IMG/VR virus record: IMGVR_UViG_3300025087_000034
Direction: 5' to 3' (one strand)
DNA: 64,000 nucleotides
From: a virus
Lineage: Duplodnaviria; Caudoviricetes
The translations under genes and the position numbers were made by a program. Below the pieces are notes generated by a model. It saw only the letters and a program-made list of their open reading frames with translations, did not search any database and was not told the DNA's origin. Of the stretch, positions 1,121 through 60,682 are shown piece after piece; the first letter of the stretch is position 1, and each line of letters opens with the position of its first letter.

Positions 1121-1724
1121 AACATATACACAGGATTGGTTTGATAGGTGTATACCTTCTTGGACAAAATATCTTGATAAATATAAGGGAAAGGAAAACC
1201 TTAGGTTTCTAGAAGTTGGAAGTTATGAGGGGCGTTCCACTTGTTGGTTGTTGGACAATATTCTTACACATTTATCATCTAAAATAAAGTGTTTTGATTT
1301 GTTTGAGGGTTGTTCTTCTCAGGGGGAGTGGTCTAAAGAACTCTACGATAGGTATAATATGAGTGAGGTTTTCAGGAACTTCATTAGTAATGTTTCTTCT
1401 TATGGTGACCGTGTTGAATATAGGGTAGGGGTTTCTCAAGAACTCTTACGTGAACTAGGGCATTCTCCCTTGTTTGATTTTATATATATAGATGGTTCCC
1501 ATATAGCTTGTGACGTTCTTGAAGATTCCGTTCTTGCTTTTAGGCTTCTTAAGCCCAACGGTATAATGATATTGGATGACTATACCTGGGAATTTTTTGA
1601 GGAACCTTTACGCCATCCTAAAATGGGAATAGATGCTTTTCTTACTATTTTTCATGGTCAATTTGATGTGTTGTTAAAAGACAGACAGGTTATATTAAGA
1701 AAGACAGGAATAAAAGAAGAGTAA
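1113..1724 (+). CDS. Class I SAM-dependent methyltransferase (Methyltransf_24-like)
   Basis: FLEVGSYEGRS and FDFIYIDGSH...ILDDY motifs; ATG at 1113 overlaps the upstream stop. Confidence 0.85.
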   Translation: MIRTYTQDWFDRCIPSWTKYLDKYKGKENLRFLEVGSYEGRSTCWLLDNILTHLSSKIKCFDLFEGCSSQGEWSKELYDRYNMSEVFRNFISNVSSYGDRVEYRVGVSQELLRELGHSPLFDFIYIDGSHIACDVLEDSVLAFRLLKPNGIMILDDYTWEFFEEPLRHPKMGIDAFLTIFHGQFDVLLKDRQVILRKTGIKEE

Positions 1725-1967
1725 GCAACCCCACGCCTAAGGGCGGGGGCTTTCGAGTCCTTGCTTACTAGGGAACAATTCCAAAAAAGGAGTCGTTAAT
1801 CGTTGAGTAGAAGAAATACATACACACCTACGGATGCTCCTCAAGTTCGTAGCAACTGTGACGCTGAATTAAAAACCCCTAGGGGTAGGGGTGGTGTTCA
1901 GCGTTTAAAAACTCTACCCAACCGTCCCGATGAGGATCTAATCTTAGCTTCGGCTAAGAGACAGAAC
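1721..1967 (+). ncRNA. omegaRNA scaffold of IscB copy 1
   Basis: Structured ~250 nt segment between the element left end and the PLMP-coding region, highly similar to 17451-17700; omegaRNA lies 5' of iscB in OMEGA systems; boundaries approximate. Confidence 0.75.
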
Positions 1968-3217
1968 TTGCGAGTCTCTGTCTATGTCTTAAACCAGCGA
2001 AGTCAGCCATTGATGCCAACAACACCAAGAAAAGCTGAGAAGCTATTGAAGGAGGGAAAGGCTATAGTTGTTAAGCGAGCGCCTTTCACTATTCAGTTGA
2101 CCTATTCTACGGGAGAGAACAAACAGCCCATCAGGCTAGGGGTAGATAGTGGTTTCGTACACGTAGGATTATCAGCAGTTTCAAAGAAACAAGAACTTTA
2201 CTCTGCCGAGGTTCAACTACGAATCGATATAGTGAATTTATTATCGGAACGTAGGTCTTATAGGAGAAATCGTAGAAATAGAAAGACTCGCTATCGTCAA
2301 GCTCGTTTCCTTAATCGAGGTATAAAAAAAGGCTGGCGGGCTCCTTCTATTCAGCACAAATTGGATAGCCATATTAGGTTGGTAAACAAGGTTAAGCAAA
2401 TCTTACCCATTACTGAGGTGGTGGTAGAGGTAGCCTCGTTTGATATTCAGAAGATAAAGAACCCAGAGATAAGTGGTAAACAGTATCAAGAGGGGGAACA
2501 AAAGGACTTTTGGAACACCAGAGAATACATCCTTCATAGAGATGACCATAAGTGCTGCCATTGTAAGGGTAAATCAAAGGACCCCATTCTTAGTGTTCAC
2601 CATTTGGAATCTAGGAAGACTGGTGGTGATAAACCAGCTAATTTGATAACGCTGTGTAAGACGTGCCACGATGATTACCATGGTGGAAAAATTGAATTGA
2701 AAGCGAAACCTTCCAAAGGGTTCAAAGCTGAAGTTTTTATGACAATGGTACGATGGCGCTTAGTAGAACAGTTGCAATGTAGGTACATCTATGGCTATGT
2801 CACCAAACAAGCTAGGGTATTGTTAGGCTTGCCTAAGAGCCATATCAACGACGCATTTGTAATCGTGAGTTCAGGGGCGTGTCCTAGAAGCCAAACCTAC
2901 TTTATTAAGCAGGTTAGAAAGCAAAATCGTAAGCTCTTTAAGGGACTACATAGTGGAATAAGAAACACAGCAACTCGTTATATCCAAGGTTTTCAACGGT
3001 ATGATAAAGTACTATGGAAGGGACAGGAGTGTTTTGTGTTTGGTAGACGAACCACGGGTTACTTTGACCTGAGATTATTAGACGGCACCAAAGTCCATAC
3101 TTCAGCTAAGGCTAAGGACTGTGTTAGACTAGAAAGCGGTAAAACGTTACTAACCCAAATAAGGAGCAGCGCTTCCTCCCCATGGTTAAAACCAAGGGTT
3201 TCCGCGCTGGAGATTCA
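1721..3217 (+). mobile_element. IS200/IS605-family IscB (OMEGA) element, copy 1, no tnpA
   Basis: Left end GTAAGCAACCCCACGCCTAAGGGCGGGGGCTTT hairpin and right end ...CGCGCTGGAGATTCA, both homologous to the ends at 17451-18936 and 60426-60682; encloses omegaRNA and iscB. Confidence 0.88.
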
Positions 3218-3221
3218 ATGA
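1968..3221 (+). CDS. iscB: IscB RNA-guided endonuclease (PLMP, split RuvC, bridge helix, HNH); track ORF starts at 1803
   Basis: VYVLNQRSQPLMP, RuvC-I LGVDSG, Arg-rich RRSYRRNRRNRKTRYR, RuvC-II VVEVASFD, HNH VHHLESRKTGGDKPANLITLCKTCHDDYH, RuvC-III SHINDAF; TTG start at 1968 is inferred. Confidence 0.93.
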   Translation: MRVSVYVLNQRSQPLMPTTPRKAEKLLKEGKAIVVKRAPFTIQLTYSTGENKQPIRLGVDSGFVHVGLSAVSKKQELYSAEVQLRIDIVNLLSERRSYRRNRRNRKTRYRQARFLNRGIKKGWRAPSIQHKLDSHIRLVNKVKQILPITEVVVEVASFDIQKIKNPEISGKQYQEGEQKDFWNTREYILHRDDHKCCHCKGKSKDPILSVHHLESRKTGGDKPANLITLCKTCHDDYHGGKIELKAKPSKGFKAEVFMTMVRWRLVEQLQCRYIYGYVTKQARVLLGLPKSHINDAFVIVSSGACPRSQTYFIKQVRKQNRKLFKGLHSGIRNTATRYIQGFQRYDKVLWKGQECFVFGRRTTGYFDLRLLDGTKVHTSAKAKDCVRLESGKTLLTQIRSSASSPWLKPRVSALEIQ

Positions 3222-3877
3222 CTGCTTTAGCTATAGTAGGAGCAGGGGGCCATGGTAGAGAGGTTTTATTATATTCTCAAGGGGTGCATGATTATAAATT
3301 TGAGGACGTATTTTTTCTTGACGATAATGAGAAACTAATAGGTTCTTATGTTTGTGATGCTTTGGTATTAGGTACAATAGAGGGGACCGTTGAAAGGCTG
3401 GATCCAGAAGATACCCTTTTTGTATGTGCCGTGGGTTCCCCTTATTTACGTATGGCCTTTGTTAACAGAGTACTCGCTGTGTGGGGCGACAGGGCTAAGT
3501 TCGCAAACATAGTGCATAGTAGTATTTTTTTATCGAAGTTTGTAAGTTTGGGTGTCGGGAGTATGGTTTGTCCTGGTACCTTAGTGACTACCAATGTAAA
3601 GATAGGTAACCATGTGAGTGTAAATTTGAATTGCACTCTAAGTCACGATGTTGTTATCGAGGACTTTGTGAATTTATCCCCCGCTGTACATTTATGTGGC
3701 GGTAGTATTCTTCGGGAGGGGTGCGACATAGGGGCGGCTGTAACTGTAATACCTAAGGTAGAAATTGGGGAGGGGGCTGTAGTAGGTGCCGGTGCTTGTG
3801 TTATTTCTGATATTCCACCACATAGTCTGGCTGTTGGTGTTCCTGCCAGAATTGTTCGTCACAATTTAAATAAGTGA
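3218..3877 (+). CDS. NeuD/PglD-like sugar O/N-acetyltransferase (hexapeptide repeat)
   Basis: IVGAGGHGREV N-terminus, left-handed beta-helix hexapeptides, VGVPAR end; ATG at 3218 directly after the IS right end. Confidence 0.9.
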   Translation: MTALAIVGAGGHGREVLLYSQGVHDYKFEDVFFLDDNEKLIGSYVCDALVLGTIEGTVERLDPEDTLFVCAVGSPYLRMAFVNRVLAVWGDRAKFANIVHSSIFLSKFVSLGVGSMVCPGTLVTTNVKIGNHVSVNLNCTLSHDVVIEDFVNLSPAVHLCGGSILREGCDIGAAVTVIPKVEIGEGAVVGAGACVISDIPPHSLAVGVPARIVRHNLNK

Positions 3878-3884
3878 GGGCCTT

Positions 3885-4910
3885 ATGAAAATATTAGTTT
3901 GCTGTCCGGGGTCTTGGCGTCATGGTTTAGATAGCCCAGAAAGAGGGGAGGGTCGTTGGGCACAAAATTTAGCTCGTTTGCTAGGAAAGCTGGGGCATGA
4001 TGTATATGCCTGTAGTATGGGTGCTCCTATATGGGGGGAAGGTATAGTTGCTCAGAACGTGCGTCTTATACAAGAGCACGAGGCTAAGCAATTCCAGCCT
4101 TTTGATATATACATAGATACTGCTTGGTGGAATGAGAAGGTTCCCTCTGCTACAGCAAAGAAAAATTTCCATGTCCACTGGTCATTAGAGCAGCATTTAA
4201 GAACAGTTAACTTTCCAAAAGACCACTATATTATTTATCCCTATTATAGTTCAAAAGAATATTTTATTGGGGATTTTAATCCTATAAATGATAGAACTTT
4301 CTTTTTACCCGTTCCTCTATGTGAGACATTTGCTGAGCCTTCTTTTGATAAAAAAAGTTTACTTTGTCCTACAAGCGGTAATTCTTGGGACCATGCTCCT
4401 TACGAGTTATTTTCTATTTTTTCTAGGGTTTTGAAGGAAATCTTAAAAGAAAACCCTGATTTATCTACTGATTGGTTGTTTAGTGACGCTCTTGTGCCAC
4501 CAATATCCAAGCGTAATCTTATTAGCGAGTTGGATAATCGGGCAGGAAAAGATAGGTTTCATAGAACCTTACCATACCATAAAGTAATGTCTATTATTTC
4601 CAGTTGTAAGTTAGCTGTTCCCCTTAGAATACAGGGCTGCCTATTGGATTCAACCGCCCTTGGTGTCCCTACTATTGTTTGGGAAGAGTGTTGCTGGTTC
4701 CCAAGAATTAAACAAATAGCGGAAAATAACGGTGTTCTTATAGAAAAGGGAAATGAAACATGTGATAGACTTAAGCATATTGTTTCTTTACTTCTTACAG
4801 ATAAAGAATTATATATAAAGTATGTTAAGGAGCTTCAAGGTGAACTTGGTCATCATACAGAGGCCGGTACTGCAGCGTGTTTTAATCATATATTGGAACA
4901 GATTTTTTAA
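3885..4910 (+). CDS. Divergent GT-B (GT4-like) glycosyltransferase
   Basis: GEGRWAQNLARLLGKLGHDV N-terminal motif and LDSTALGVPTIVW (EAxAxGxP-like) motif; paralog of 7306-8304. Confidence 0.55.
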   Translation: MKILVCCPGSWRHGLDSPERGEGRWAQNLARLLGKLGHDVYACSMGAPIWGEGIVAQNVRLIQEHEAKQFQPFDIYIDTAWWNEKVPSATAKKNFHVHWSLEQHLRTVNFPKDHYIIYPYYSSKEYFIGDFNPINDRTFFLPVPLCETFAEPSFDKKSLLCPTSGNSWDHAPYELFSIFSRVLKEILKENPDLSTDWLFSDALVPPISKRNLISELDNRAGKDRFHRTLPYHKVMSIISSCKLAVPLRIQGCLLDSTALGVPTIVWEECCWFPRIKQIAENNGVLIEKGNETCDRLKHIVSLLLTDKELYIKYVKELQGELGHHTEAGTAACFNHILEQIF

Positions 4911-4928
4911 TCGTATTTAGGAGGCACA

Positions 4929-5879
4929 ATGTCTTTCAAAAGATTAAATATTTTTATTACAGGTATAAATGGTTTTCTAGGAACTGCTACGGCAGAATAT
5001 TTTTTAAACTGTGGTGCACATGTTATCGGTTTAGTTAGAGATCAGAATAGAAAGACAATGAGGGGGATTCAGGATAGATGTTCCATTGTTTATGGGGATG
5101 TTACTGATAAGTCATTGGTTCAGCGTATTATTTCCCATTATGAGGTTGACTATGTTATACATCTTGCCTCTCAGCCCATAGTTAAGATTTGTGATAATGA
5201 CCCCTATACTGCTTATAATACTAATGTTATGGGCGTTGTTAGTGTTTTGGAGGCGTGCAGAGTAATGAGGCAGGCAGCACCACGGGTCTTGGTAATGTCC
5301 TCGGATAAGTTCTATAGTAATGCACAAGAGCTTCCTTATGTAGAGGATTTATCCCCTATTGTCTCTGATACATATTGTACGTCCAAGCTATGCCAAGATT
5401 TTATTGCCCGTTCATACGCTATTACCTATAACCTACCTATATTTACGGCTCGTGCGGGTAACATCTACGGTCCAGGGGACTTGAACTTGTCTCGTCTTAT
5501 ACCAAAAAACACCATTAGAATTCTTGAGGGTGATAATCCGGTTTTGTATGGTCAGGCGGCTGAGTTTGTTAGGGAATTTTTGTACATAGACGATATAATG
5601 ACTGCTTTTGACACACTACTTACAAAAGCGGTTCCAGGGGAGGCCTATAATATTGGTGGTACCAAGCCGTATAAGATACTAGATGTTTTAGAACTCTTAA
5701 GAGACAAGATAAACCCAAATATTAAAATAGATGTAGTTGATGTTGATTTTTACGAAATAAGCAAGCAGTATTTAGACGCTTCGAAACTCATGTCTTTAGG
5801 GTGGTGCCCTAAGGTTTCTTTGGACGAAGGTTTGTCTCGAACTATTTCTTGGTATAAAGACTATTTAAATAGGGTTTAA
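4929..5879 (+). CDS. NDP-sugar 4,6-dehydratase (CDP-glucose/GDP-mannose dehydratase-like extended SDR)
   Basis: GINGFLG, HLASQPIV, SSDKFY, YCTSK (YxxSK), RAGNIYGPGD motifs. Confidence 0.88.
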   Translation: MSFKRLNIFITGINGFLGTATAEYFLNCGAHVIGLVRDQNRKTMRGIQDRCSIVYGDVTDKSLVQRIISHYEVDYVIHLASQPIVKICDNDPYTAYNTNVMGVVSVLEACRVMRQAAPRVLVMSSDKFYSNAQELPYVEDLSPIVSDTYCTSKLCQDFIARSYAITYNLPIFTARAGNIYGPGDLNLSRLIPKNTIRILEGDNPVLYGQAAEFVREFLYIDDIMTAFDTLLTKAVPGEAYNIGGTKPYKILDVLELLRDKINPNIKIDVVDVDFYEISKQYLDASKLMSLGWCPKVSLDEGLSRTISWYKDYLNRV

Positions 5880-5884
5880 ATAAA

Positions 5885-6532
5885 ATGTACAAAAAATACG
5901 AAAAGGTTTTGTTAGAAGAGTGTGGCATAGATTTTAATCGCTATATAACCGTTTTGGCTAATAATGGTAACACTACTGGTATATATGCTGACGTTGCTTT
6001 GTTACTGTATAGGTTAGTAAGGTTTAGTGGTACTAATAGTGTGTTGGAGTTTGGTAGTGGCATGAGTACCCTTATACTGTCAAAGGCTTGTATGGATTAT
6101 GGTAAGAATTTGGTGGTGGGAGAGTCCGGGCGTAAGTGGTATAATATAACAAAGGTGTGTTTAGATGCACTGTCTTTAAACAGCAGAGGGTTTGTGTGTA
6201 CAGATAGCGATGAAAGTAAGTTTCCTGTTTTGGATGGTCCTGTTTCCTTAGTGTGGGTTGATGGTACTGTTTCCGAAGTACAGGGGCCTGGGTATAATAG
6301 GCTGGGGTCTTGTGAGTATTATTGGAATAGTATAAAAGGGGCCTGCCTTCTTTTTGATGATTCTGAGTCTGCTTATATGTCTGGTATTAAACCAGTACTT
6401 GAACAAAACGGCAGAAGTGACGATAGTTATTTTTTATTTAATCCAACCGGGAGAGGTGATAGGCAGGTCTTGGTTTCTGTACCAGAGTCTGGTGAACAAT
6501 TTTTAGACGTTGTAAAATCTTGTATTCTTTAA
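5885..6532 (+). CDS. Putative class I SAM-dependent methyltransferase
   Basis: VLEFGSGMST motif I, LVWVDG and LLFDD segments. Confidence 0.65.
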   Translation: MYKKYEKVLLEECGIDFNRYITVLANNGNTTGIYADVALLLYRLVRFSGTNSVLEFGSGMSTLILSKACMDYGKNLVVGESGRKWYNITKVCLDALSLNSRGFVCTDSDESKFPVLDGPVSLVWVDGTVSEVQGPGYNRLGSCEYYWNSIKGACLLFDDSESAYMSGIKPVLEQNGRSDDSYFLFNPTGRGDRQVLVSVPESGEQFLDVVKSCIL

Positions 6533-6542
6533 GGGGGGTATC

Positions 6543-7304
6543 ATGAGTTATAGAATTTCAGAAGAACAAATACGAAAAGATCAGGCAGAATTTAAGAAGG
6601 AGTATCCTCCGTTTGTGCCTTTTGCACTAAATTCTAGTGATAAAAATAAGTTAGCTAATAAGTTTTCTTCCCTACTAGTAACACAAAACGGAATGGACAC
6701 AGACGACTACTGTGTTAATGATAACAACAAGGTAGAGACGTATTTAAAGGACGTAAAACCTGGCAGCACTGTTTTACTTTTGGGTACGGGTACAGGAAGA
6801 GAGGTGCTGGTGGCTAAAGAGATGGGGTTTTTAGCTATAGGTACGACTTTGGGTTCACGAAATGTTTATTTTGGTCACAAGTTTTTGCGTTTGGGTCCGA
6901 GTGAGTTAGTTGAGTGTGCAAACGAGGTCCTACCTTTTAGAAACAATTCTTTTGACGTTGTAGCTGGGTTCCAAGTATTTGAACATGCCATAGCTCCGTT
7001 TTTATTTTTGATGGAGTTACGAAGGGTTTTGAAGTACGGGGGAAGGGTTTTAATGGAGTGGCCTCCTGCGTCAGACTACCATATGGGCCAAAATCCCCAC
7101 CATCAAGTTTGTTACTGTCCTGGACAGGCGGAGTCCTTGTTACAAAAGGCTTGTTTTGAAAATATAAAGTCCTATTATAGTAATTTGCAGCCCATACCAG
7201 ACGATGAAGTATGGTCTGCTAGGAATCACGGGCATATGTTGTGTGTTGAGGGCATAAAAAGTAGGGCCGAACAAGATTTTGTTGGTTTGTATTTAGGAGC
7301 TTAG
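6543..7304 (+). CDS. Class I SAM-dependent methyltransferase (type 11-like)
   Basis: VLLLGTGTGRE, LPFRNNSFDVV...VFEH, LRRVLKYGG motifs. Confidence 0.85.
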   Translation: MSYRISEEQIRKDQAEFKKEYPPFVPFALNSSDKNKLANKFSSLLVTQNGMDTDDYCVNDNNKVETYLKDVKPGSTVLLLGTGTGREVLVAKEMGFLAIGTTLGSRNVYFGHKFLRLGPSELVECANEVLPFRNNSFDVVAGFQVFEHAIAPFLFLMELRRVLKYGGRVLMEWPPASDYHMGQNPHHQVCYCPGQAESLLQKACFENIKSYYSNLQPIPDDEVWSARNHGHMLCVEGIKSRAEQDFVGLYLGA

Positions 7305-7305
7305 G

Positions 7306-8304
7306 GTGAAGGTACATATTAATTGCCCTGGTATGTGGAGGGCGGACTTGGAAAGCCCAGAAAGGGGAGAGAGCAGGTGGGCTCAAAACTTAGTTAAGTT
7401 GTTGGGCACTGCAGGGCACGAGGTTTATGCTTCTAGTTATGGGTACCCAGAGTGGGTTAACCCTCCTGTTCCTAATGTTACCCTACTTAATGAGACGATG
7501 GATATGAGGGTATTGGGGAAGCTAGACTTACACATAGACGCTTCTTGGTGGGACGGTAAGGTTTTTCCAATAGATGCTAAGAAGAAGGTAATGGTTAAGT
7601 GGTCATTAGAAGACTATTTAAAAAAAGAGCCGTTACCAAAAGACCATTACCTATTTTATCCTTATGAGTCTAGGGAAGTTTTATTTATGAATGACCAAAA
7701 CCCAAGTAGGGATAGAACTTTTTTTATGCCTATACCTTTGTGTGAAAAGTTTGAAGAACCAAAGTTTAATAACAAAGGTATTTTATGGCCCTCAAAGGGG
7801 TTAGACGTAGAGGCAGGCTTTAAGGGGACGGCTGCATTTGTTTTGAAAGAGGTTTTATATCCCCTCCTTGAGCAAGATAATTCATTATTCGTTATTTGGA
7901 TGATGTACCATGAACTTATAAAAACTGATTTAGATATACGAGTACGTAATGGAATAGATGAAAGATATCCTTCATGTGCTTATAATGTAGTTATTGACCT
8001 GTTAAAAAGAAGTAAAATAGCTTTACCAATAAACCATCCCGGATCTATATTAGAATGTGCAGCCTATGGTGTAGCTAGTCTTATATGGGAAGACGCTGGG
8101 TTTTTTCCTGAGGTAGCCAAAAATAATGGTTTATTAATTGAGCGTGGGGCTAAAAAAGAAAGGATTAAAGAAGTTATATTACAACTTCTTAACGATGAAT
8201 CAGTATACAATAAATACGTAAAAGATTTACAGTACGTATTAAGACATCATGAAAACCCAACAGCTCTTTCTATATTTAATGATATAATGAGCAAGATATT
8301 TTAG
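7306..8304 (+). CDS. Divergent GT-B (GT4-like) glycosyltransferase, paralog of 3885-4910
   Basis: GESRWAQNLVKLLGTAGHEV and ILECAAYGVASLIW; shares SPERGE, KWSLE/HWSLE, PKDHY, DRTFF motifs with 3885-4910; GTG start. Confidence 0.55.
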   Translation: MKVHINCPGMWRADLESPERGESRWAQNLVKLLGTAGHEVYASSYGYPEWVNPPVPNVTLLNETMDMRVLGKLDLHIDASWWDGKVFPIDAKKKVMVKWSLEDYLKKEPLPKDHYLFYPYESREVLFMNDQNPSRDRTFFMPIPLCEKFEEPKFNNKGILWPSKGLDVEAGFKGTAAFVLKEVLYPLLEQDNSLFVIWMMYHELIKTDLDIRVRNGIDERYPSCAYNVVIDLLKRSKIALPINHPGSILECAAYGVASLIWEDAGFFPEVAKNNGLLIERGAKKERIKEVILQLLNDESVYNKYVKDLQYVLRHHENPTALSIFNDIMSKIF

Positions 8305-8324
8305 CTTTCCTAGGAGGATTTAAA

Positions 8325-9206: not shown

Positions 9207-9215
9207 GAGAAAAAA

Positions 9216-9509: not shown

Positions 9510-9512
9510 ATT

Positions 9513-10436: not shown

Positions 10437-10443
10437 AAAAAGA

Positions 10444-13801: not shown

Positions 13802-13815
13802 CATTTAACAATTTG

Positions 13816-13850: not shown

Positions 13851-13871
13851 TGATTTTGGAGATGTATAAAT

Positions 13872-16157: not shown

Positions 16158-16251
16158 TGTTTATGAAACTTTTAAACGTTTTGACCTTATAAAAGAGGCC
16201 GGTTATAATTTGGTGTATATTTGGGAATATGACTTTTTAAACTTACTATAA
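16158..16251 (+). pseudogene. C-terminal remnant of a YEFLGDYWHG-type endonuclease
   Basis: Translates YETFKRFDLIKEAGYNLVYIWEYDFLNLL*, matching YQETLERIKILEEAGYKVIYIWEQDFLN of 12917-13801; no own start codon. Confidence 0.75.
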
Positions 16252-16816: not shown

Positions 16817-17470
16817 TTGATGTTTGATATAGAAGAAACACTACGGGATTCAGGAATTAATTTAATCTTAGGTGTGGATGAGGTAGGTAGGGGTGCTTTA
16901 ATATCTGATGTTGTTGTTTCATGTGTAATTTTGCCGGCGGGCCATAAAATAGAAGGTATAAAAGACTCAAAAAAATTTACAGGTCCTAAAGCGCATGAAA
17001 ATAGAATAAAGATATCAAAATTAATACATGAAAGAGCTTTGGAAGTTCATATAATTTCTGCACCAGCAGAAGTTATAGATAAAATAAATATATTAGAAGC
17101 AACAAAACTGTGTATAATAACAGCTATATCAAAATGTAAAATAAAACCAGGTATGGTTATAATAGATGGTGATATGGAATTTGAAGATGGTGAAATTATG
17201 TATCCATATATGTGTGTAGAAAAGGCGGACTCTAGGAGTGAAAACGTAGCGGCTGCCTCTATTGTAGCTAAGGTACACAGAGATAATCATATGTTATTGT
17301 TGGATAAAGTTTATCCACAATATGGTTTAGCACAGCACAAAGGCTATGGAACAAAAGAGCATATGGAGGCCATATTAAAATATGGTCCTTGTGAACTTCA
17401 TAGGAAGTCTTTTAGTGTAAAAGGAAGAAAAATAGGGAGTATTAAACCTAGTAAGCAGCCCCACGCCTAA
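16817..17470 (+). CDS. rnhB: Ribonuclease HII
   Basis: GVDEVGRG, DSKK, IIDG, KAD...AAASIVAKVHRD, GYGTKEH; the last residues are encoded by the IS left end. Confidence 0.95.
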   Translation: MMFDIEETLRDSGINLILGVDEVGRGALISDVVVSCVILPAGHKIEGIKDSKKFTGPKAHENRIKISKLIHERALEVHIISAPAEVIDKINILEATKLCIITAISKCKIKPGMVIIDGDMEFEDGEIMYPYMCVEKADSRSENVAAASIVAKVHRDNHMLLLDKVYPQYGLAQHKGYGTKEHMEAILKYGPCELHRKSFSVKGRKIGSIKPSKQPHA

Positions 17471-17700
17471 AGGTGGGGGCTTTTAGGAGCCCTTACTTAC
17501 TAGGGAGCGATCCCAGAAAGGAGTCGTTAATCGTTGAGTAGAAGAGATACATACACACCTACGAATGCTCCTCAAGTTCATAGCAACTGTGGCGCTGAAT
17601 TAAAAACCCCTAGGGGTAGGGGTGGTGTTCAGCGTTTAAAAACTCTACCCAACAATCCCGATGAGGACCTAACCCGTGGACAGGGGGTACATTTAACATT
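17451..17700 (+). ncRNA. omegaRNA scaffold of IscB copy 2
   Basis: Highly similar to 1721-1950 (e.g. GCTCCTCAAGTTC...GCTGAATTAAAAACCCCTAGGGGTAGGGGTGGTGTTCAGCG); boundaries approximate. Confidence 0.75.
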
Positions 17701-18936
17701 AGTGTACGTACTGAACAATCGTGGTGAGCCGTTGATGCCTTGTAGTCCAAAGAAAGCCAAAGCATTGCTAAAGGAGGGAAAAGCCAAGGTAAGGACTAGA
17801 ACACCTTTTACGATACAATTGCTTTATGGTAGCTCAGGTTACAAACAACCTATTAGGTTGGGAGTAGACAGTGGTTTTAAGCACGTAGGACTATCTGCTG
17901 TTTCTGACAAGCAGGAACTTTACTCTGTTGAAGTCCAGCTTAGAATCGACATAGTGAATTTATTATCGGAACGTAGGTCTTATAGGAGAAATCGTAGAAA
18001 TAGAAAGACTCGCTATCGTCAAGCTCGTTTCCTTAATCGAGGAATAAAAAAAGGCTGGCTAGCCCCCAGTATTCAACACAAACTAGATAGCCATGTTAGG
18101 TTAGTAAACAAGGTTAAGCAAATCTTACCCGTTATTGAGGTGGTGGTAGAGGTAGCCTTGTTTGATATTCAGAAGATAAAGAATCCAGAGACGGGTGGTA
18201 AACAGTACCAAGAAGGGGAACAAAAGGGTTTTTGGAACACCAGAGAATACATACTCCACAGGGACAACCACAAGTGTTGCCACTGTAAGGGTAAATCAAA
18301 CGACACTGTTCTTAATGTTCACCATTTGGAGTCTAGAAAAATTGGTGGCGATAGACCGGAGAATTTAATAACACTTTGTAAGACGTGTCATGATACTTAT
18401 CATAATGGAGGGATTAAATTGAAAGCAAAGCCTTCTAAAGGGTTCAAAGCTGAAACTTTTATGACAATGGTACGATGGCGTTTAGTAGAACAATTGAGCT
18501 GCAGCTACACTTATGGTTACGTTACCAAGCATAATAGAACCTTGATAGGACTACCCAAGAGTCACGCAAACGATGCATTTGTAATCGCGAGCAAAATAGA
18601 CCGACCTAGATGTCAGTCTTATCAGATCAAACAAGTTAGGAAGCAAAATCGTAAGCTGTTCAAAGGACCACATAGTGGAGTAAGAAACACAGCCGCTAGA
18701 TATATTCAAGGTTTTCAACGGTACGATAAAGTAAAGTGGAAATCTCAGGAGTGTTTTGTGTTTGGGCGAAGGACTAGGGGTACTTTTGATCTAAGGCTAC
18801 TAGATAGGACTAAACTTTGTGGTGATGCTAAAGCTAAAGACTGTGTTAGGCTAGAAAGCGGTAGAACGTTCTTAACTCAAAGGAGCAGCGTTTCTTCCCC
18901 GGGGCTAAAGCTCGGGGTACCCGCGCTGAAGATTTG
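17451..18936 (+). mobile_element. IS200/IS605-family IscB (OMEGA) element, copy 2, no tnpA
   Basis: Left end GTAAGCAGCCCCACGCCTAAAGGTGGGGGCTTT; right end ...CCCGCGCTGAAGATTTG; homologous to copy 1. Confidence 0.88.
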
Positions 18937-18937
18937 A
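17702..18937 (+). CDS. iscB: IscB RNA-guided endonuclease (track ORF starts at 17534)
   Basis: VYVLNNRGEPLMP, LGVDSG, Arg-rich helix, VVEVALFD, HNH motif, SHANDAF all intact; start codon uncertain. Confidence 0.93.
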   Translation: MYVLNNRGEPLMPCSPKKAKALLKEGKAKVRTRTPFTIQLLYGSSGYKQPIRLGVDSGFKHVGLSAVSDKQELYSVEVQLRIDIVNLLSERRSYRRNRRNRKTRYRQARFLNRGIKKGWLAPSIQHKLDSHVRLVNKVKQILPVIEVVVEVALFDIQKIKNPETGGKQYQEGEQKGFWNTREYILHRDNHKCCHCKGKSNDTVLNVHHLESRKIGGDRPENLITLCKTCHDTYHNGGIKLKAKPSKGFKAETFMTMVRWRLVEQLSCSYTYGYVTKHNRTLIGLPKSHANDAFVIASKIDRPRCQSYQIKQVRKQNRKLFKGPHSGVRNTAARYIQGFQRYDKVKWKSQECFVFGRRTRGTFDLRLLDRTKLCGDAKAKDCVRLESGRTFLTQRSSVSSPGLKLGVPALKI

Positions 18938-19992
18938 TGGCTAGTTTTGATTTAGATAAAGAATATTTAAGTCTTGATGATGTTCTTTTGGTACCTGCCT
19001 ATTCAGAAATAGCAAGCAGGTTGGATACAGATATATCTACAACATTGGTTGGTAATATAAAGATAAAAATACCTGTTGTTTCAGCTGCCATGGATACAAT
19101 TTCTGGGAAGGATATGGGTATCAAGTTGGGTCGTTTAGGTGGGGCCGCTTTTCTTCACAGGTTTGCTTCAGATGAAGAAATTGTGTCCATGGTAAAAGAT
19201 ATAAAAGAGGCAGGTCAGTTAGCTATACCTTCTATAGGAATAAGGAAGGACATAGTTCAATGGGTAGATGTATTATTGGGCGCCGGTGCTGACGTAATAT
19301 CTATTGATATAGCACACGGGCACAGTAAAGAGGTTTTAACAACAATAGGTTTGTTGAAGGGCGTTTATAAAGAGGCGTGCAAAGTAGTGGCTGGTAATGT
19401 TGCCACAAAAGAGGGTGTTCATGACCTAATTGAGGCGGGTGCAGACGCTGTAAAGGTTTTTGTAGGCCCGGGGGCTGCGTGTTCTACTCGTGTAGTAACT
19501 GGTTTTGGCGTCCCTACCTTCTCATGTTTAGTAGAGTGTCTTGGTGAGGCATCTAGACACAATATTCCTATAATAGCTGATGGTGGGCTAAAAGCCCCCG
19601 GTGATTTTACTAAATGCTTGGCAGTGGGTGCTAGTGCCTGTATGTCAGGATCAATGCTCTCTGCTACGGATGAGACTCCTGGTAAGTATGTAAAGATACG
19701 GGACAAATTTTATAAAGAATACAGGGGGATGGCGTCTGAGGCTAGCCAGAAGGACTTCAAGAGGGGGTTGAAATTAGGTACTGCGTCAGAGGGTGAGGCT
19801 ATGCTTTTTGAATCTAAGGGACCTGTAAAGGATGTTATAGATAGGATAACCGGAGGCATTAGAAGCGGCCTTACCTATTGTGGGGCTAAAAACCTGCAAG
19901 AGCTTAGGGAAAAAGCCCGCTTTATAAGAATAACCCAAAGTGCGGCAGCGGAAGGTTTGCCACACGGCCTGAATAACAAGGGGGCCCTTTGA
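18937..19992 (+). CDS. guaB: IMP dehydrogenase / GMP reductase family protein without CBS domains
   Basis: DDVLLVP, SAAMDT, IDIAHG, AGNVAT, GPGAACSTR (catalytic Cys), IADGG, YRGMAS, GGIRSGLTYCG; IMPDH versus GMPR not resolvable by eye. Confidence 0.85.
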   Translation: MASFDLDKEYLSLDDVLLVPAYSEIASRLDTDISTTLVGNIKIKIPVVSAAMDTISGKDMGIKLGRLGGAAFLHRFASDEEIVSMVKDIKEAGQLAIPSIGIRKDIVQWVDVLLGAGADVISIDIAHGHSKEVLTTIGLLKGVYKEACKVVAGNVATKEGVHDLIEAGADAVKVFVGPGAACSTRVVTGFGVPTFSCLVECLGEASRHNIPIIADGGLKAPGDFTKCLAVGASACMSGSMLSATDETPGKYVKIRDKFYKEYRGMASEASQKDFKRGLKLGTASEGEAMLFESKGPVKDVIDRITGGIRSGLTYCGAKNLQELREKARFIRITQSAAAEGLPHGLNNKGAL

Positions 19993-47337: not shown

Positions 47338-47382
47338 GCACCGGGGTTTCTATTCTAGCTATTATATATAGGAGCGTAATAA

Positions 47383-49285: not shown

Positions 49286-49297
49286 TTTGGATCCTAT

Positions 49298-50284: not shown

Positions 50285-50293
50285 AATTTCCTC

Positions 50294-51746: not shown

Positions 51747-51756
51747 CTCTTTGCTC

Positions 51757-52986: not shown

Positions 52987-53003
52987 TATAAGTCTCCCAA
53001 AGA

Positions 53004-54863: not shown

Positions 54864-54878
54864 GTACGAGGGACTCCT

Positions 54879-55553
54879 TTATCCGAGGTCCAAGGGGATT
54901 TCTGTAGAATATTCTGGGCAAAAAGATTCGACCCAAAAAAATTCTTTTAATCCGTGGTTTGTAAATATGATATCACCTAGAGAAAGGGAAGTTGAATTTT
55001 TACGGTATAGTTTAGCCCATATGCCTTCGCATTTTTGCCATTCTTCACAAAGTACGTCCTCTGTTCTGGATAGAGATAACAAAATATTAATTGGATCCTT
55101 TACAGAATTAAGCCCCTCTTTGTCCCAAAAAAGTACGTAGGTATTTCTATACTTTTTTCTTAGAGTCGGCAGTATCATTTTTTTTATTTTTGCAAGGTCT
55201 TTCACTATCGTGTAGTCTTTATATAGGGGTAAAATAGCCTCTATGTCGGTGTATTCTACTAGATAACATGTAAACTTTTTGTAGCTGACCTTTTGTAATT
55301 CTTCAGTCTTAATTGTCTGGTATACGTATTTATTGTGGGGAACTTTAGTGGCAATAGGTAAAGAATGAGGAAAGAATACCAATGTTTCAGATTGTTTTTT
55401 ATAGTCCGTAGTAAAACCCAAAGGTGAAGCTATACAGGAGTTAGTCAGTGCACTATTATCATAGACAGCAATTATATCTATATTATTAAACGGAAATGGG
55501 TATGGATATATTAGTTTGGTCCCTAATTTTAGATTTGGCAGTAGGGAAGGCAT
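54879..55553 (-). CDS. Hypothetical protein within the ligase cluster
   Basis: 224-aa ORF co-oriented between the amidotransferase genes. Confidence 0.7.
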   Translation of the reverse strand: MPSLLPNLKLGTKLIYPYPFPFNNIDIIAVYDNSALTNSCIASPLGFTTDYKKQSETLVFFPHSLPIATKVPHNKYVYQTIKTEELQKVSYKKFTCYLVEYTDIEAILPLYKDYTIVKDLAKIKKMILPTLRKKYRNTYVLFWDKEGLNSVKDPINILLSLSRTEDVLCEEWQKCEGIWAKLYRKNSTSLSLGDIIFTNHGLKEFFWVESFCPEYSTEIPLDLG

Positions 55554-56395
55554 TTTTCAACCCAATCGGATGAATAGCCTTTGGTAGTCATAGGCTCAAG
55601 AATAAGGGCCTCATTTTTCTTTAGGAGGATTTCTTGAGCATCTAAGAATATATGCCCCGCTTTATTAGTGTCTATGCCTATAATAGTGTCATTTAATAGT
55701 TGTTCATTGTTTGATATGAAGACTAAGTCCTGCCATTTCTTTGTTTTTATTGTCAGATTATCCGATTTTTTTGCGATAAATAGTCTAATTGTGTCTGTAG
55801 CAAACACTATATAAAAATAGTTACCATGACATATAGAGGCAGCCTTCTTAAAGGCTTCTTTTATAGGTGCTCCTTCTACAATGAACTTTCCTGTCAAAGC
55901 GAGAACCAAATCAACTTTGCTGGGTAATGTTTGTAGGTTTATACGATATTGCTTGGCTATTTTTTCTACGGATTTAATATTACCCATGCCAAACCCTATC
56001 ATATTACCCATTTTTATAGGGGCTGTTTCTTTGTGGGTTTCTTTTGTTAGTATTCCGGCTATCAATGCAGTTGGGTTAATTATATCATTGTTTATTATAT
56101 TTAAGAACTTGAGGTTATCTACTAGTTTTCCTTTAGAAAGAATTTCTTTTATAGTAATTAGTCCTGTTTTGTATGGTCTGACAGAGTTGGCATTTTGAAA
56201 GATGGAATTAGTACTATGGAGAGTAGAATTAAATACAGATAAGGAGCATAGTGGATTTTCCATGCCAAGTAAAGCAATGTTAAAGAAGGTTTTTATCACA
56301 GTTTGCTTATCAGTAGCTGGGGAAGATTGAACAGCATGGGTATATTCTTTGGGCTTAGACAAACAAATGAGTAGGGTGGTGTTATGGTCGTACAT
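55529..56395 (-). CDS. Degenerate class II amidotransferase-like (Ntn-fold) protein
   Basis: APIKMGNMIGFGMG, KVDL, ASICHGNY...LFIAK...VFISNNEQLL resemble GATase-2; no N-terminal Cys. Confidence 0.5.
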   Translation of the reverse strand: MYDHNTTLLICLSKPKEYTHAVQSSPATDKQTVIKTFFNIALLGMENPLCSLSVFNSTLHSTNSIFQNANSVRPYKTGLITIKEILSKGKLVDNLKFLNIINNDIINPTALIAGILTKETHKETAPIKMGNMIGFGMGNIKSVEKIAKQYRINLQTLPSKVDLVLALTGKFIVEGAPIKEAFKKAASICHGNYFYIVFATDTIRLFIAKKSDNLTIKTKKWQDLVFISNNEQLLNDTIIGIDTNKAGHIFLDAQEILLKKNEALILEPMTTKGYSSDWVEKCLPYCQI

Positions 56396-57986
56396 ATGTA
56401 CCTGACTCTTTATCCCAAATTACGCCGTTGGTTGTTTGTAAATATAAAATCCCAAGTTTTACTTGTTCTGTTTTAGCTCCTATAATTTCACTAACAGTGC
56501 TTATCCACTCTAGTTCGTTAGAACACTCATCAATAAGGGCGGTATCTATTGTTTCTGAGATTTTATCAAGAACTATCTTACTTATTTTGTTTTTGTTCTT
56601 CACTAAATCTTTTTCTATCTTGTCCCAAGAGTCGCCTTCACTTAACCTATACGAACAAGGTCGCTCGGCTAATTCTAGTAGTATGTTAAAGGAATTTCCG
56701 TGTCCTCTAAGTTCCGGCTTTAATAGATTAACCATCTCTTTTGCTTGTAATCTAACCTTTTCCACGTAGGGTTCAAAGTTCTTGGTATTACTATGTCTAG
56801 GTCCCCCATAGTCTCCATAATTGTTTAAAAGTTTTTCTTGTATTTCACTTGCCTCATCCATATAGTCTGTATCGCCACTATGTAAAATACCATAGGTACT
56901 GAAAGACACGGCCTTTATAAGTAGCGAATATACAAGGAGGGATATTGCTGTTATAGCGGAAGGGGACAGCAGGCCATCACAGAAGCGGGCTTCTAGGTGT
57001 AGTTTTTCTATAGCTTCTTTGGAATCAAATTCTATATTGGAGTAGTTTATAAAAGAATATCTGCCCTTGGTGCCATCTGACTCGCTTATTTCTTTTATAA
57101 TAGATTTCATATTTCTACGTAGAGCGGAAAACTTTAGTATTGTGTGTCTGAATTTTGCCCATCTAGTAAGAGTATCCTTGGAAGTACCCGCAGAGGAGAT
57201 CCAAACTAGGGCATTATGGTAACGTCTGATAAGTTGGTGAAAGTTTGTCAATATAATTTCCGGCATAGCTCTTTCGAGTTCTATTATATTATGTTTATTA
57301 TTGACTCCCTTTTTGTATATTGGTATCACTTCCCCCCTATCGTTGAAACCAATATTATAGTATCCTGATAAAAGATGTATGTGGGTGCTAGCTCTTTCAT
57401 CTACGTAAGCACCCTTAGCTATACATTTGTCTATAATATTCTTTGTTTGTTCTAATAACATATCGTAGCTTACTCTCCTACCCACCGTTGTAACTTCAAC
57501 GCCTCCGTCTCCCTTTAAGCTGCCATCTTTTACGATTTGGAATACTCCGTTATCGCCAATCTTAAGAAGGTTTTCCGATGGAGTCAGTTCCTTAACAAGC
57601 TTAGCTCGTACATGGGAGGGATTTTTATTCTCGTCCAGAAAGAGGGCACATTTGGTACAGTCCCTTATGGCATCCTTGCATGTAAAGCAAGGAGAGTAAA
57701 ATTCCACGCAGTATATTCCTGGGCATTCATATTTTTGTCTTAGAGTACAATGCTTATAGGAAGCACATTTGGTGAAACACTTGGAGTTTTCTTTTTGGGG
57801 ATGAGAGCACGGGCATAGAAAGCTCTTACCATTACAGTTGCCTGTTTTTTCTAGCAGGTTTAGTTCGTGTTCGAGCCCTATTTTTAGAGTAGCTTCCAAT
57901 ATTCTTTTCCAATAATTAGCTTCCTCCGATAGCAAACAGGGCCTGTTCTTTTTCTTTGTGAATACTAACTTCTGATTTTGTTTCAT
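56382..57986 (-). CDS. Putative amidoligase (glutamate-cysteine ligase/GS fold) with Cys-rich insertion
   Basis: KIGLEHE, KDGSL, GVEVTT, STHIHL, RYSFIN, LEARFCDG; 12 Cys inserted after the first motif. Confidence 0.85.
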   Translation of the reverse strand: MKQNQKLVFTKKKNRPCLLSEEANYWKRILEATLKIGLEHELNLLEKTGNCNGKSFLCPCSHPQKENSKCFTKCASYKHCTLRQKYECPGIYCVEFYSPCFTCKDAIRDCTKCALFLDENKNPSHVRAKLVKELTPSENLLKIGDNGVFQIVKDGSLKGDGGVEVTTVGRRVSYDMLLEQTKNIIDKCIAKGAYVDERASTHIHLLSGYYNIGFNDRGEVIPIYKKGVNNKHNIIELERAMPEIILTNFHQLIRRYHNALVWISSAGTSKDTLTRWAKFRHTILKFSALRRNMKSIIKEISESDGTKGRYSFINYSNIEFDSKEAIEKLHLEARFCDGLLSPSAITAISLLVYSLLIKAVSFSTYGILHSGDTDYMDEASEIQEKLLNNYGDYGGPRHSNTKNFEPYVEKVRLQAKEMVNLLKPELRGHGNSFNILLELAERPCSYRLSEGDSWDKIEKDLVKNKNKISKIVLDKISETIDTALIDECSNELEWISTVSEIIGAKTEQVKLGILYLQTTNGVIWDKESGTYVRP

Positions 57987-59040
57987 GTTTCAACCATTTA
58001 AGTATGAGTGGTGCCTCGTGCTCCTCGGGTTTATAACTTATGTTTTGCATATATTCACCAGCTAGGTTGCCAATATTTTCTTCTATTTTTTTCATTTCTT
58101 CTTTCATCTTATTCTTATTTCTACTGTAGTACATATCTTGTACTTTAGTTGTATCTGGTAATTTATATAGTTTAGCTATGTAATCTTTGTCAGATATTTT
58201 TTCTGTTCTTTTCCAAGCAAGGCTTTCTTTATAAACTGTGTTTAGGATGTTTTCCATAAGGACAAAAGAAGTTGTTAGTAGGCTTAGTGCAAGTCGTGGG
58301 GACTTCAAATAATATCCCCCTGGGGTTCTATACTCCAAAGTTCTTCTACTTAAGCGGTAGTCTCCTAACTTGCCATAATCTTTTGACAATCTTCTACTAT
58401 CATTGCTATCTATAAAAGCACTTGGAATACCAATATAGTAATCTAATATGGACACCATATTCTTTATTATTTTATCAGTGTTATTTGGGGCAAATAGAAG
58501 AAGGTCTTCAGGAAGACCAAGGTGAACGTGAAAACCACATACACGATTATACAGACAAGACCCCGCAATGGGAAACAAGCCTTTCGGTAGTGTAGTATAA
58601 ATTTTTAATACTTGGTTTTTTAGATTTTCCAGGTGCTGCTCCGGAGATAAAGCAAAATCTGGACGTAATTCCCCTAATTCGCCATCACACCCTATTTGGC
58701 TGTCGAATGGAAGGACGGAAGAGGCATCTACTAATGTTCCTTTACGATTTACAATAAAGAATTCAGGGTCGGACCCTATTGTTAGATCGTGCTTCTCTAT
58801 ATATATGTTTTTTCCTGGATTGTATATTATAGGGGATAATACGTTGACAAATATATTCTTATTCCCGTGAGAGACAATATCTTCTTTTATAGCAGGGCAA
58901 ACTAATAAACTAAATTTTCCAACCGCGGTATCAAATATTAACCAATCACCATGGTCGATACCATAAGATAGCATTATTTCTCTTGGTACTCTAACCTGGT
59001 GCATTGCGCATGAAGTAGACGGAACAGCAGTAAGAAACAT
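57916..59040 (-). CDS. phiEco32-like COOH-NH2 ligase type 2 (copy A)
   Basis: IGSDPEF, GCDG, ELRP, GFHVHLG, GKLGDYR, LEYRTPG. Confidence 0.9.
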   Translation of the reverse strand: MFLTAVPSTSCAMHQVRVPREIMLSYGIDHGDWLIFDTAVGKFSLLVCPAIKEDIVSHGNKNIFVNVLSPIIYNPGKNIYIEKHDLTIGSDPEFFIVNRKGTLVDASSVLPFDSQIGCDGELGELRPDFALSPEQHLENLKNQVLKIYTTLPKGLFPIAGSCLYNRVCGFHVHLGLPEDLLLFAPNNTDKIIKNMVSILDYYIGIPSAFIDSNDSRRLSKDYGKLGDYRLSRRTLEYRTPGGYYLKSPRLALSLLTTSFVLMENILNTVYKESLAWKRTEKISDKDYIAKLYKLPDTTKVQDMYYSRNKNKMKEEMKKIEENIGNLAGEYMQNISYKPEEHEAPLILKWLKHETKSEVSIHKEKEQALFAIGGS

Positions 59041-59057
59041 GCACCACCTCTTATGAA

Positions 59058-60425
59058 TTAATGATAACGAATTAACATATTTTTCTGTTCGTAAGCAGCT
59101 TTCCTTTTCCAGAATTGATTTTTAAACATTTTTATATTGTCTACATAATCGTAGACAATAGCATTTTCTTTTCCTTCCAACGGTCTCTCAATCCTGCCAG
59201 TTGACTGAACTATTAGGCTAGAACTCTTTAGGGGGGCGGCGAGAAATAAGCGACTTGAAGGTTTATAATTAAAACCCTCAGCTAGAAGGCCATAGGTTAC
59301 TATAAGTATTTTTGTTTCTCCAGAGAGAAACCCTTCTATCTGTTTATCCCTAATCTTATTTGTCTGTTTGGAATGCGGAGAAGCAACAGTTATCCCCAAA
59401 CTATTAAAGATATCTGTTAGAATATCTATATGTTTAGTGGTAACAGTTAATACCATACAGGTATTTTCTAGACCATACTCATATAGTATATCTGATACTA
59501 TGAGATTGTTTCTTCTTTCATTAGTAGAAATATATTCTATTAGATCTGCATAGTTGGCTCCCCATAACTTCTTCGTAGCGGTAATTTCAGTATAGTGTAC
59601 TAAGACAGAAGAATTTATTATTCTATTTGCATCTACTGCATCCTTATGCTTTATTGTTGTTACTACTGGTCCTATGTAATTAAACATCAAAGGATCTAAT
59701 CCATCTTCTCTATACGGGGTAGCTGTAATTCCATATAAAAATCTAGGAGAAAATCCACAGATAACCTTTAAGAAAGTAGAGGAAGGAACATGTTGGCATT
59801 CATCAACAAGTATTAATCCAAAAGAATATTTAAGTTCTTTTATTAGTTCTTTGTTACGAACTAGTGTGGGAACCATACCTATAGTAAGTATATCCCCAAG
59901 TGCCTTCTTACTCTCTCCTATAATTCCTATTTTTCCTACTTCTATAAATTTCTCTATCTCTTTCTTAACTTGTTTAACAAGGGGCCCCCTATGAGTTAGC
60001 CATAGTGTGGGTAACCCTAGTCTGGCTATGACTTCCAAAGCCATTACAGTTTTTCCACTTCCTGCGGGGGCTATGCCAATACCCTGTCGGTGGGAAACTA
60101 AACTCTCAACCCAGGGTATTTGTATAGGTTCCAACTTTATGTTATTATTTATTAATCTTTTACTGAAATTGGCGGTAGTGTCTTCTATAACATTTATACT
60201 ATTAGTTATTTCTGTAGCCCTATAGAGATAGCCTCTAGGAACTATTATGCCTTCGGTTATTTCTGAATATTGTTTTATGAATTTTGGTATACCGAAGGTT
60301 CGTCTGCCAAATTGTATAGCAGATTTCCACGCAGGATTCGGGAAGGTTAGGTCTTTTCTAAATTGGTCTAGTTCAGTTTTTGATATGTTTGTTATAGTTA
60401 AGTCTTTGTCAATTTTGACATCCAT
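59058..60425 (-). CDS. Superfamily 2 helicase (UvsW/Rad25-like)
   Basis: APAGSGKT, VDECQH, GITATPYREDG, EGFN, QSTGRIER. Confidence 0.92.
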   Translation of the reverse strand: MDVKIDKDLTITNISKTELDQFRKDLTFPNPAWKSAIQFGRRTFGIPKFIKQYSEITEGIIVPRGYLYRATEITNSINVIEDTTANFSKRLINNNIKLEPIQIPWVESLVSHRQGIGIAPAGSGKTVMALEVIARLGLPTLWLTHRGPLVKQVKKEIEKFIEVGKIGIIGESKKALGDILTIGMVPTLVRNKELIKELKYSFGLILVDECQHVPSSTFLKVICGFSPRFLYGITATPYREDGLDPLMFNYIGPVVTTIKHKDAVDANRIINSSVLVHYTEITATKKLWGANYADLIEYISTNERRNNLIVSDILYEYGLENTCMVLTVTTKHIDILTDIFNSLGITVASPHSKQTNKIRDKQIEGFLSGETKILIVTYGLLAEGFNYKPSSRLFLAAPLKSSSLIVQSTGRIERPLEGKENAIVYDYVDNIKMFKNQFWKRKAAYEQKNMLIRYH

Positions 60426-60682
60426 CAAATCTTCAACGCGAGTACCCCGAGCTTTAGCTCTGGGGAGGAAGCGCTCCTCCTTGTTGTATTAGTAAAGTTT
60501 TACGACCTTTTAACCAAACAGTAGTCATGGCTTTAGGTCACTTATGATTCGTAATTAGCTGGTTTGTTATCCCCAGTCTTCCTAGATTTTACTTGAGTAA
60601 TGCTTTGGCTTTCCTTTTTTGGAATTATTTCCTAGTAAGCAAGGACTTGAAAGCCCCCGTTTTTAGGCGGGGGGTTATTTAT
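60426..60682 (-). mobile_element. 257-bp non-autonomous (MITE-like) derivative of the IscB element
   Basis: Minus strand begins ATAAATAACCCCCCGCCTAAAAACGGGGGCTTTCAAGTCCTTGCTTACTAGG (left end), holds iscB scraps and ends CCCCAGAGCTAAAGCTCGGGGTACTCGCGTTGAAGATTTG (right end). Confidence 0.88.

Follow-up and report, generated by a model that had tools for sequence, protein, structure and literature searches.

Three IscB/omegaRNA elements of a groundwater jumbo phage end directly at gene start codons

The window analysed here is a stretch of 64,000 nucleotides within a 133-kb IMG/VR virus record (IMGVR_UViG_3300025087_000034) of an uncultured groundwater jumbo phage. The same phage is present in public assemblies as a 258.5-kb contig, and the 133-kb record corresponds to ~58% of the genome. 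We observe three IscB/omegaRNA (HEARO) elements of the IS200/IS605 superfamily in the window, two of them intact and one gutted, all oriented with the surrounding operon (Table 1). An earlier interpretation drawn from the letters alone, here called the sequence-only reading, held that all three insertions end exactly at the ATG of a host gene, and we were able to confirm this to the base at positions 3218, 18937 and 60425. The elements are non-autonomous ISC elements and are ordinary in themselves. We consider it likely that they inserted without target duplication 5′ of an ATGR sequence, and that their position at start codons results from their target-adjacent motif (TAM) together with retention at co-transcribed operon junctions.

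The right junction of copy 1 reads ...GAGATTCA followed directly by ATGACT (ATG at 3218-3220), that of copy 2 reads ...AAGATTTG followed by ATGGCT (18937-18939), and that of copy 3, on the minus strand, reads ...AAGATTTG followed by ATGGAT (60425-60423). Public gene calls place the starts of all three downstream genes, which encode an acetyltransferase (219 aa), an inosine-monophosphate dehydrogenase (IMPDH) family protein (351 aa) and a helicase (455 aa), at these junction ATGs, and the N-termini of homologues align to the same positions. On the other side of each element, a Shine-Dalgarno (SD)-like core occurs within the 14 nt before the left junction and is suitably spaced from it (AGGA, GGGAG and AAGAGGA for copies 1-3). 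With such a core to the left and the ATG to the right, each element precisely separates a gene's ribosome-binding site (RBS) from its ATG.

The upstream genes are affected as the sequence-only reading had described. The methyltransferase before copy 1 ends AAA GAA GAG TAA, with the G-TAA supplied by the element, so that the element start re-creates the ending K-E-E-TAA; the empty site would read GA/A TGA. RNase HII before copy 2 ends ...KPSKQPHA-stop, in place of the ...KGVYIKDM-stop or ...KGVYIKDI-stop found in relatives. The iscB stop codons of copies 1 and 2 overlap the downstream ATG (ATGA and TGATG, respectively), and this too can be read directly from the sequence.

Table 1. Features of the three elements and their immediate neighbours (positions in the window).
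Feature	Position	Strand	Details and basis
Copy 1, intact ISC-type element (omegaRNA + iscB)	1721..3217	+	1497 bp; HEARO match from 1721
Copy 2, intact element	17451..18936	+	1486 bp; 79% nucleotide identity to copy 1; HEARO and copy alignment
Copy 3, internally deleted PATE-like relic	60426..60682	-	257 bp; alignment to the other copies
omegaRNA scaffold, copy 1	1721..1942	+	Rfam HEARO RF02033, 113.9 bits against a gathering score of 83; model 1-211 complete
omegaRNA scaffold, copy 2	17451..17673	+	HEARO, 116.3 bits; model 1-211
iscB open frame, copy 1	1803..3221	+	conserved protein from near 1971; stop TGA 3219-3221 built of host bases (ATGA)
iscB open frame, copy 2	17534..18937	+	stop TGA 18935-18937, its A being also the first base of the host ATG (TGATG)
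Sub-terminal two-tier hairpin, iscB-distal end (TnpA-type end hairpin), copy 1	3167..3209	+	DNA fold; aligns with the ends of 50 relatives
Putative guide, copy 1	1705..1720	+	host 5′ flank, last methyltransferase codons with AGGA SD-like core; published IscB architecture
Putative guide, copy 2	17435..17450	+	host 5′ flank with GGGAG SD of the IMPDH gene; published IscB architecture
Target/TAM ATGA, copy 1	3218..3221	+	start of NeuD/PglD-type acetyltransferase (3218-3877); overlaps iscB stop
Target/TAM ATGG, copy 2	18937..18940	+	start of IMPDH/GMP-reductase-family gene (18937-19992)
Target/TAM ATGG, copy 3	60422..60425	-	start of SF2 helicase (60425-59058)
Methyltransferase upstream of copy 1	1056..1724	+	stop TAA 1722-1724 inside the element
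RNase HII upstream of copy 2	16817..17470	+	last six codons (SKQPHA-stop) element-encoded
69-aa open reading frame upstream of copy 3	60690..60899	-	stop 7 nt before the relic; flank ending TAAGAGGACT (SD-like)

The two intact elements have the anatomy expected of their family. The HEARO model begins exactly at the left ends, 1721 and 17451, and the RNA lies upstream of iscB and overlaps its 5′ end. The encoded proteins contain the Pfam domain RRXRR of the PLMP/RuvC-I/bridge region (1.6e-65 in copy 1 and 2.1e-65 in copy 2) with an inserted HNH domain (5e-6 and 3e-6) and match IscB chains in the PDB at 1e-41 to 1e-43, with invariant catalytic-type columns D59, E153, H210/H211, N224 and H291/D294 in the IscB alignment. 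A search of the contig with the whole of copy 1 returned one match of 100% and one of 79%, and the two IscB proteins are 80% identical. Comparison of the two iscB genes gave a dN/dS of 0.125 at a dS of ~1, which indicates that the copies are old and have been kept functional rather than arising by recent duplication; by this measure both are under purifying selection. RNA-guided, TAM-dependent DNA cleavage is predicted for both intact IscBs, in which the catalytic-type columns are conserved. What remains of copy 3 is ~90 nt from the left end, ~80 nt from the right end and, between them, 36 nt of iscB; it has no intact omegaRNA and no iscB gene, and its HEARO region is cut to about the first 90 nt. 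Its alignment to the other copies begins at 60682, and its first bases have decayed from GTAAGCAA to ATAAATAA. The left and right flanks of each copy are unrelated to each other, so there is no target-site duplication, and sub-terminal imperfect hairpins are present while terminal inverted repeats are absent, as in ISC elements.

An ATG that follows the end of every copy could in principle be part of the element, either a start codon that it carries along or the transposon's last three bases, or could stand there by coincidence. The ATG is indeed common to all three copies, and the window alone cannot separate element from flank; similarity between the copies ends after ...GAGATTCA in copy 1 and picks up again only as ATG. 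Related phages separate the two. In L191, whose IMPDH is 69% identical, RNase HII is joined to IMPDH as ...GATATGTA-ATG-ATT (TA-ATG-ATT) with no element, and in L192 (67% identical) the junction reads ...ATTTAAAGGAATATAA-ATG-ACT, a 10-nt spacer standing before ATGACT, again with no element. Both of these unoccupied syntenic sites read ATGA at the IMPDH start, as against ATGG in the window. In P0122, the closest helicase relative (60%), the gene table has a small open reading frame (ORF) abutting the helicase, and the 264-nt gap occupied by copy 3 in the window is missing; this relative and P0002 (81%), the two closest relatives, were compared by gene table. The acetyltransferase has no close relative (best 47%) and hence no unoccupied syntenic site for copy 1, and IMG/VR searches with the three downstream proteins returned only distant relatives of 26-39% identity.

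The empty sites reconstructed in the sequence-only reading thus fit what is found at the unoccupied syntenic sites of L191, L192 and P0122, and presence or absence of the elements is polymorphic between lineages at collinear positions. The unoccupied relatives retain the ATG directly after the upstream gene, homologues begin at the same methionine, the left flank holds a host SD suitably spaced from the junction, and published empty sites likewise show N/ATGA. We therefore find it hardly credible that the ATG is element DNA or a coincidence. As judged from the unoccupied relatives, the aligned N-termini of homologues and the SD-like cores in the left flanks, the junction ATG is host DNA; it is also the family's published target/TAM. 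The same gene block of L191 holds a different selfish element: its ribonucleotide reductase (1-2092, 1067 aa) has LAGLIDADG/Hom_end matches, which point to an intein or homing endonuclease in a relative that lacks the IscB insertion.

A survey of right-end junctions against gene starts, which the sequence-only reading had suggested as a check, used 160 loci from virus and genome collections that encode relatives of the window IscB (50-78% identity). The right ends of the relatives align as a foot, a CCCC-stem, a TAAAG or TGAAG loop, a stem-GGGG(T)TTCC, a second foot and a spacer of ~9 nt. Junctions were anchored with a hidden Markov model (HMM) of the hairpin core from which the spacer and the TAM/flank were excluded. 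Two other ways of placing the junctions had been tried. Boundaries taken from the ends of BLAST similarity were unbiased but noisy, with 56 of 114 on an ATG against a background of 15% and the others short or overshot, and anchoring on minimum-free-energy hairpins failed, so that the hairpin-core HMM was used in its place.

We found an ATG 12-17 nt past the anchor in 71 of 76 non-redundant insertions, where ~7 would be expected by chance (p ~1e-66), and coincidence is excluded by this fixed distance. The right-flank ATG had been taken in the sequence-only reading as the target/TAM, and the survey bears this out: the motif is ATGA(A) family-wide, with 51 ATGAA, 6 ATGAT, 6 ATGAC, 5 ATGGA, 2 ATGAG and 1 ATGGC among the 71, and ATGR in the window. 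In 51 of 71 insertions the junction ATG also begins an ORF of 60 aa or more, compared with 23% of ATGA sites in the same host flanks (p 5e-18). In a second test, elements were removed in silico and one crude gene caller was applied both to junctions and to background sites. The junction was a called start in 25 of 65 cases, with 8 more in frame at most 20 codons away, whereas among ATGA sites called starts made up 2.4% overall and 13.5% of the non-disruptive ones (p 5e-7 against the latter). In both tests the junctions are strongly enriched at gene starts. An SD core is present in the host left flank of 31 of 68 insertions, against a background of 10.5% (p 2e-12); in 43 of 65, a co-oriented upstream ORF extends into the element or stops no more than 30 nt short of it; and in 11 of 65 the element splits a canonical ATGA stop/start overlap. 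Landing on start codons is thus general for this IscB clade, in cells and phages alike, and the enrichment exceeds what survival of harmless insertions alone would give. Co-transcription inside an operon is the obvious candidate for the extra factor behind it.

Within the window alone the signal is smaller. Once the elements are taken out, 93% of the window is coding, and gene starts make up 3.5% of its 1040 ATGR sites, so that three of three insertions on starts gives p ~4e-5. Gene starts, however, make up 35% of the non-disruptive sites, and against these the same result gives p ~0.04, which means that the window by itself goes only weakly beyond survivorship in a dense phage genome. The strong start-codon signal comes from the family-wide survey and not from the window.

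Several observations were made alongside the survey. Where the junction ATG is not a start (for instance in L029, L040, L045, L065 and L038), an SD and the real start often follow a few bases downstream, as in ATGAAGGAG...ATG, and the element is still at the 5′ end of a gene. Metagenome contigs (L213-L292), many of them from microbial-mat samples, hold a large element family with the 5′ end GTAAGCAT. Its 36 members with a detectable right end include 9 of full length (~1.56 kb) and 23 protein-less derivatives of ~365 bp, which retain both ends and also sit directly before ATGA. A 197-kb phage contig (L034, IMGVR_UViG_3300037067_013660) has two full HEARO matches on one strand, at 2255 and 5031 and hence 2.8 kb apart, representing two IscB elements with ~1.3 kb of host DNA between them. 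In a 132-kb virus contig (L069), a ROOL RNA (304 bits) and a tRNA (1491-2181) lie immediately upstream of an IscB element whose left end is 32 nt past the tRNA.

These results suggest how such elements could be maintained at start codons. The sequence-only reading took as established that IscB draws its guide from the 5′ flank and recognises an ATG-containing TAM on the 3′ side, and both premises are borne out by Kapitonov, Makarova and Koonin 2016 (PMC4810608) and Meers et al. 2023 (10.1101/2023.03.14.532601). Since the window copies are co-oriented with the operon, transcripts reading through from the upstream gene can yield an omegaRNA that has the final ~16 nt of this gene, or its SD region, as its 5′ guide. 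Bound to this RNA, IscB would be directed to precisely the uninterrupted junction, where the guide match is followed by ATGR, and would cut it in an element-free genome, after which recombination would copy the element in. This copying-in may represent homing between co-infecting phages or re-installation after excision; homing is suggested by the architecture of the elements together with published work. The first insertions would need a Y1 transposase acting in trans. Two factors may then place the elements at starts: ATGA(A) looks like the sequence at many gene starts as well as the canonical overlap of stop and start in ATGA, and copies would survive where no gene is broken and where they are co-transcribed, which in practice would be operon junctions.

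A number of observations weigh against this account. Among the public contigs with the exact acetyltransferase, IMPDH or helicase, which come from several groundwater samples, none has an empty allele of this phage; all contigs with the exact flanking proteins carry the elements, which leaves no direct indication that the elements are moving or homing at present. A search for the Y1 transposase (PF01797) gave no match in the 133-kb record, which holds ~58% of the genome. Two of the three window TAMs are ATGG, a minority form seen in 6 of 71 surveyed insertions. The survey itself covers one IscB clade, at least 50% identical to the window protein, and its gene calls are crude, being based on the longest ORF. 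Finally, the enrichment over non-disruptive sites would fit more than one extra factor, be it co-transcription, target accessibility or something else.

Some of the same observations would fit intact copies that have been domesticated as phage genes, either as RNA-guided weapons against competing phages or as regulators, in which case the elements would be immobile and their position a frozen accident. The elements are fixed in every population contig across several groundwater samples, including the copy 3 relic; the intact copies are old (dS ~1) yet under purifying selection; and no transposase was found in the record. However, the record covers only ~58% of the genome, and the intact copies have kept both ends, the hairpins and a complete omegaRNA, as mobile relatives do. 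Their putative guides spell only their own empty sites, a signature of selfish homing or retention, and the decayed third copy is what ordinary element turnover produces. We regard domestication as quite improbable.

The phage also carries other genes of this kind. A tnpB lies ~2 kb before the start of the window (G000:C1:58260-58469, L208) as an intact-looking frame of 377 aa with a Cas12f1-like_TNB match at 8e-25; the phage thus carries both IscB and TnpB, without a detectable TnpA. Population variants differ upstream of ~16163 (L182, L184, L186 and L187 versus L183 and L185), and some of them have a tnpB (OrfB_IS605/Cas12f-like, 358 aa) and a DUF4379 gene in the place that the end of the ribonucleotide reductase gene occupies in the window. 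In the window, the stretch ~16158-16250, just after the ribonucleotide reductase stop (16157), is apparently the last ~90 nt of the DUF4379 gene. The tnpB/DUF4379 stretch constitutes a second, polymorphic OMEGA-type cassette in this phage.

The sequence-only reading went further and proposed that the element ends restore stops and translational coupling. In its strongest form, this would mean that the ends have been shaped by selection for translationally silent insertion into operons, with ribosomes that finish iscB re-initiating on the downstream gene and so replacing its SD, which insertion displaces by ~1.5 kb. The part concerning stops holds for a subfamily. At an ATGA overlap, a GTAA 5′ end converts the upstream NNA TGA to NNG TAA, a mostly synonymous change, and the re-created TAA is found in copy 1 (W1), in L034 (another jumbo phage) and in 7 of the 34 metagenomic insertions of GTAAGCAT type that follow an ORF of 60 or more codons. 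Most relatives (52 of 65), however, start with GTCA, and ORFs crossing their left junctions run 2-23 codons into the element; copy 2, although of the GTAA type, still adds 6 aa to RNase HII. Any A/T-rich sequence would yield a stop within ~20 codons. The frequency of ATGA-overlap sites is not clearly different between GTAA-type (9 of 39) and GTCA-type (9 of 60) elements in this small sample, and the GTAA/GTCA difference co-varies with its pairing partner in an omegaRNA stem, so that it can be neutral drift.

The part concerning coupling fares similarly. Besides copies 1 and 2, in which the overlap is exact, the iscB stop overlaps the ATG in 9 of 71 relatives overall (ATGA in 6 and TGATG in 3) and directly abuts it in 2 more, making 11 of 71. 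In 34 of 71, including the closest relatives L018 and L019, iscB stops instead in the hairpin loop, 30-34 nt upstream of the ATG. Re-initiation after iscB is generally plausible, since this distance is within the range for it, whereas the exact overlap is not a conserved feature. A GGAG stands 5-6 nt before the ATG in copy 1 and L034 and is lacking in copies 2 and 3, and an SD core in the last 17 nt of the element occurs in 8 of 68 relatives, which equals background. Copy 3 has no iscB to couple to and is nevertheless fixed before the helicase. That the elements are fixed in all sampled populations shows them to be tolerated, as silent ends would predict. On balance we think it unlikely that selection for silent insertion shaped the element ends, and prefer the account in which TAM and retention set their position; for the GTAA subfamily, adaptive ends are possible.

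A more speculative combination of these ideas, to which we give a modest chance at best, is that the ATGA target of this IscB/ISC clade is itself selected as a signature of operon junctions, since it occurs both as a start codon and in the ATGA overlap. An element landing there would be co-transcribed and would break no gene. The GTAAGCA-type phage sub-lineages would then have tuned both ends to near-silent, 'polarity-free' insertion, with a 5′ GTAA restoring the stop, an iscB frame that closes at or close to the host ATG and, in some cases, a GGAG in place of the displaced SD.

The window is a clean case of phage insertions for which the guide, the TAM and the empty site can each be spelled out. 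Approximately two thirds of insertions in this IscB clade are exactly on a start codon and leave the gene's RBS 1.5 kb upstream, which raises the question of how the downstream genes are still translated; re-initiation after iscB and SD-independent initiation are the candidates. For annotation, this means that genes directly 3′ of iscB have lost their native SD and that upstream genes may carry element-encoded tails or stops. Tool builders may also find use for the natural variation of the TAM among closely related IscBs, in which ATGG occurs beside ATGA.

An ATG-based TAM was already known; the family-wide numbers and the displaced SD are added here. Kapitonov, Makarova and Koonin 2016 (PMC4810608) proved with empty sites that several ISC families insert at N/ATGA and begin with GT. 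Start codons are not mentioned in that paper (0 occurrences), and in the literature searched the ATG-based TAM was not linked to them. The transposons ISC1-1_MA, ISC2-1_HM and ISC2-1_MS described there resemble the window copies in being IscB-only, non-autonomous and ~1.5 kb long with a 5′ GT, and in having sub-terminal imperfect hairpins, no target duplication and a position 5′ of ATGA. The window elements differ from them in their jumbo-phage host, in two of three targets being ATGG and in a 5′ end of GTAAGCA rather than the common GTCA. OgeuIscB (PDB 7XHT, 7UTN) belongs to the same protein family as the window IscBs (E ~4e-41), although only the N-terminal ~110 residues and a second stretch align by sequence, and its TAM is given as NWRRNA and not ATGA.

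A close counterpart with experimental data is ISGst5/GstIscB of Geobacillus stearothermophilus (10.1101/2023.03.14.532601). Its omegaRNA is located upstream of iscB, at the end of the transposon, and TTCAT, which corresponds to ATGAA in iscB orientation, is read by GstIscB as well as by TnpA. Insertions of IscB elements tend to follow the direction of the upstream gene, and most IscB elements lack tnpA. The window elements share with ISGst5 the HEARO upstream of iscB at the element end, the putative guide in the flank, a TAM of this type in iscB orientation, co-orientation with the upstream gene and PATE-like protein-less derivatives. Cleavage, TAM and TnpA-dependent excision have been measured for ISGst5, whereas the window elements are known from sequence alone and have no TnpA in the record. 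The setting also differs, and in a phage homing between co-infecting genomes would be the more likely route. In this respect the window elements resemble the T4-like free-standing homing endonuclease genes Seg and Mob (PMC13565253), which likewise place a selfish nuclease gene between conserved phage genes and are predicted to be copied into a co-infecting relative after cutting its element-free allele. Unlike Seg and Mob, which rely on protein recognition, the window elements would use an RNA guide and a TAM, and they have transposon ends and an insertion point defined to the base.

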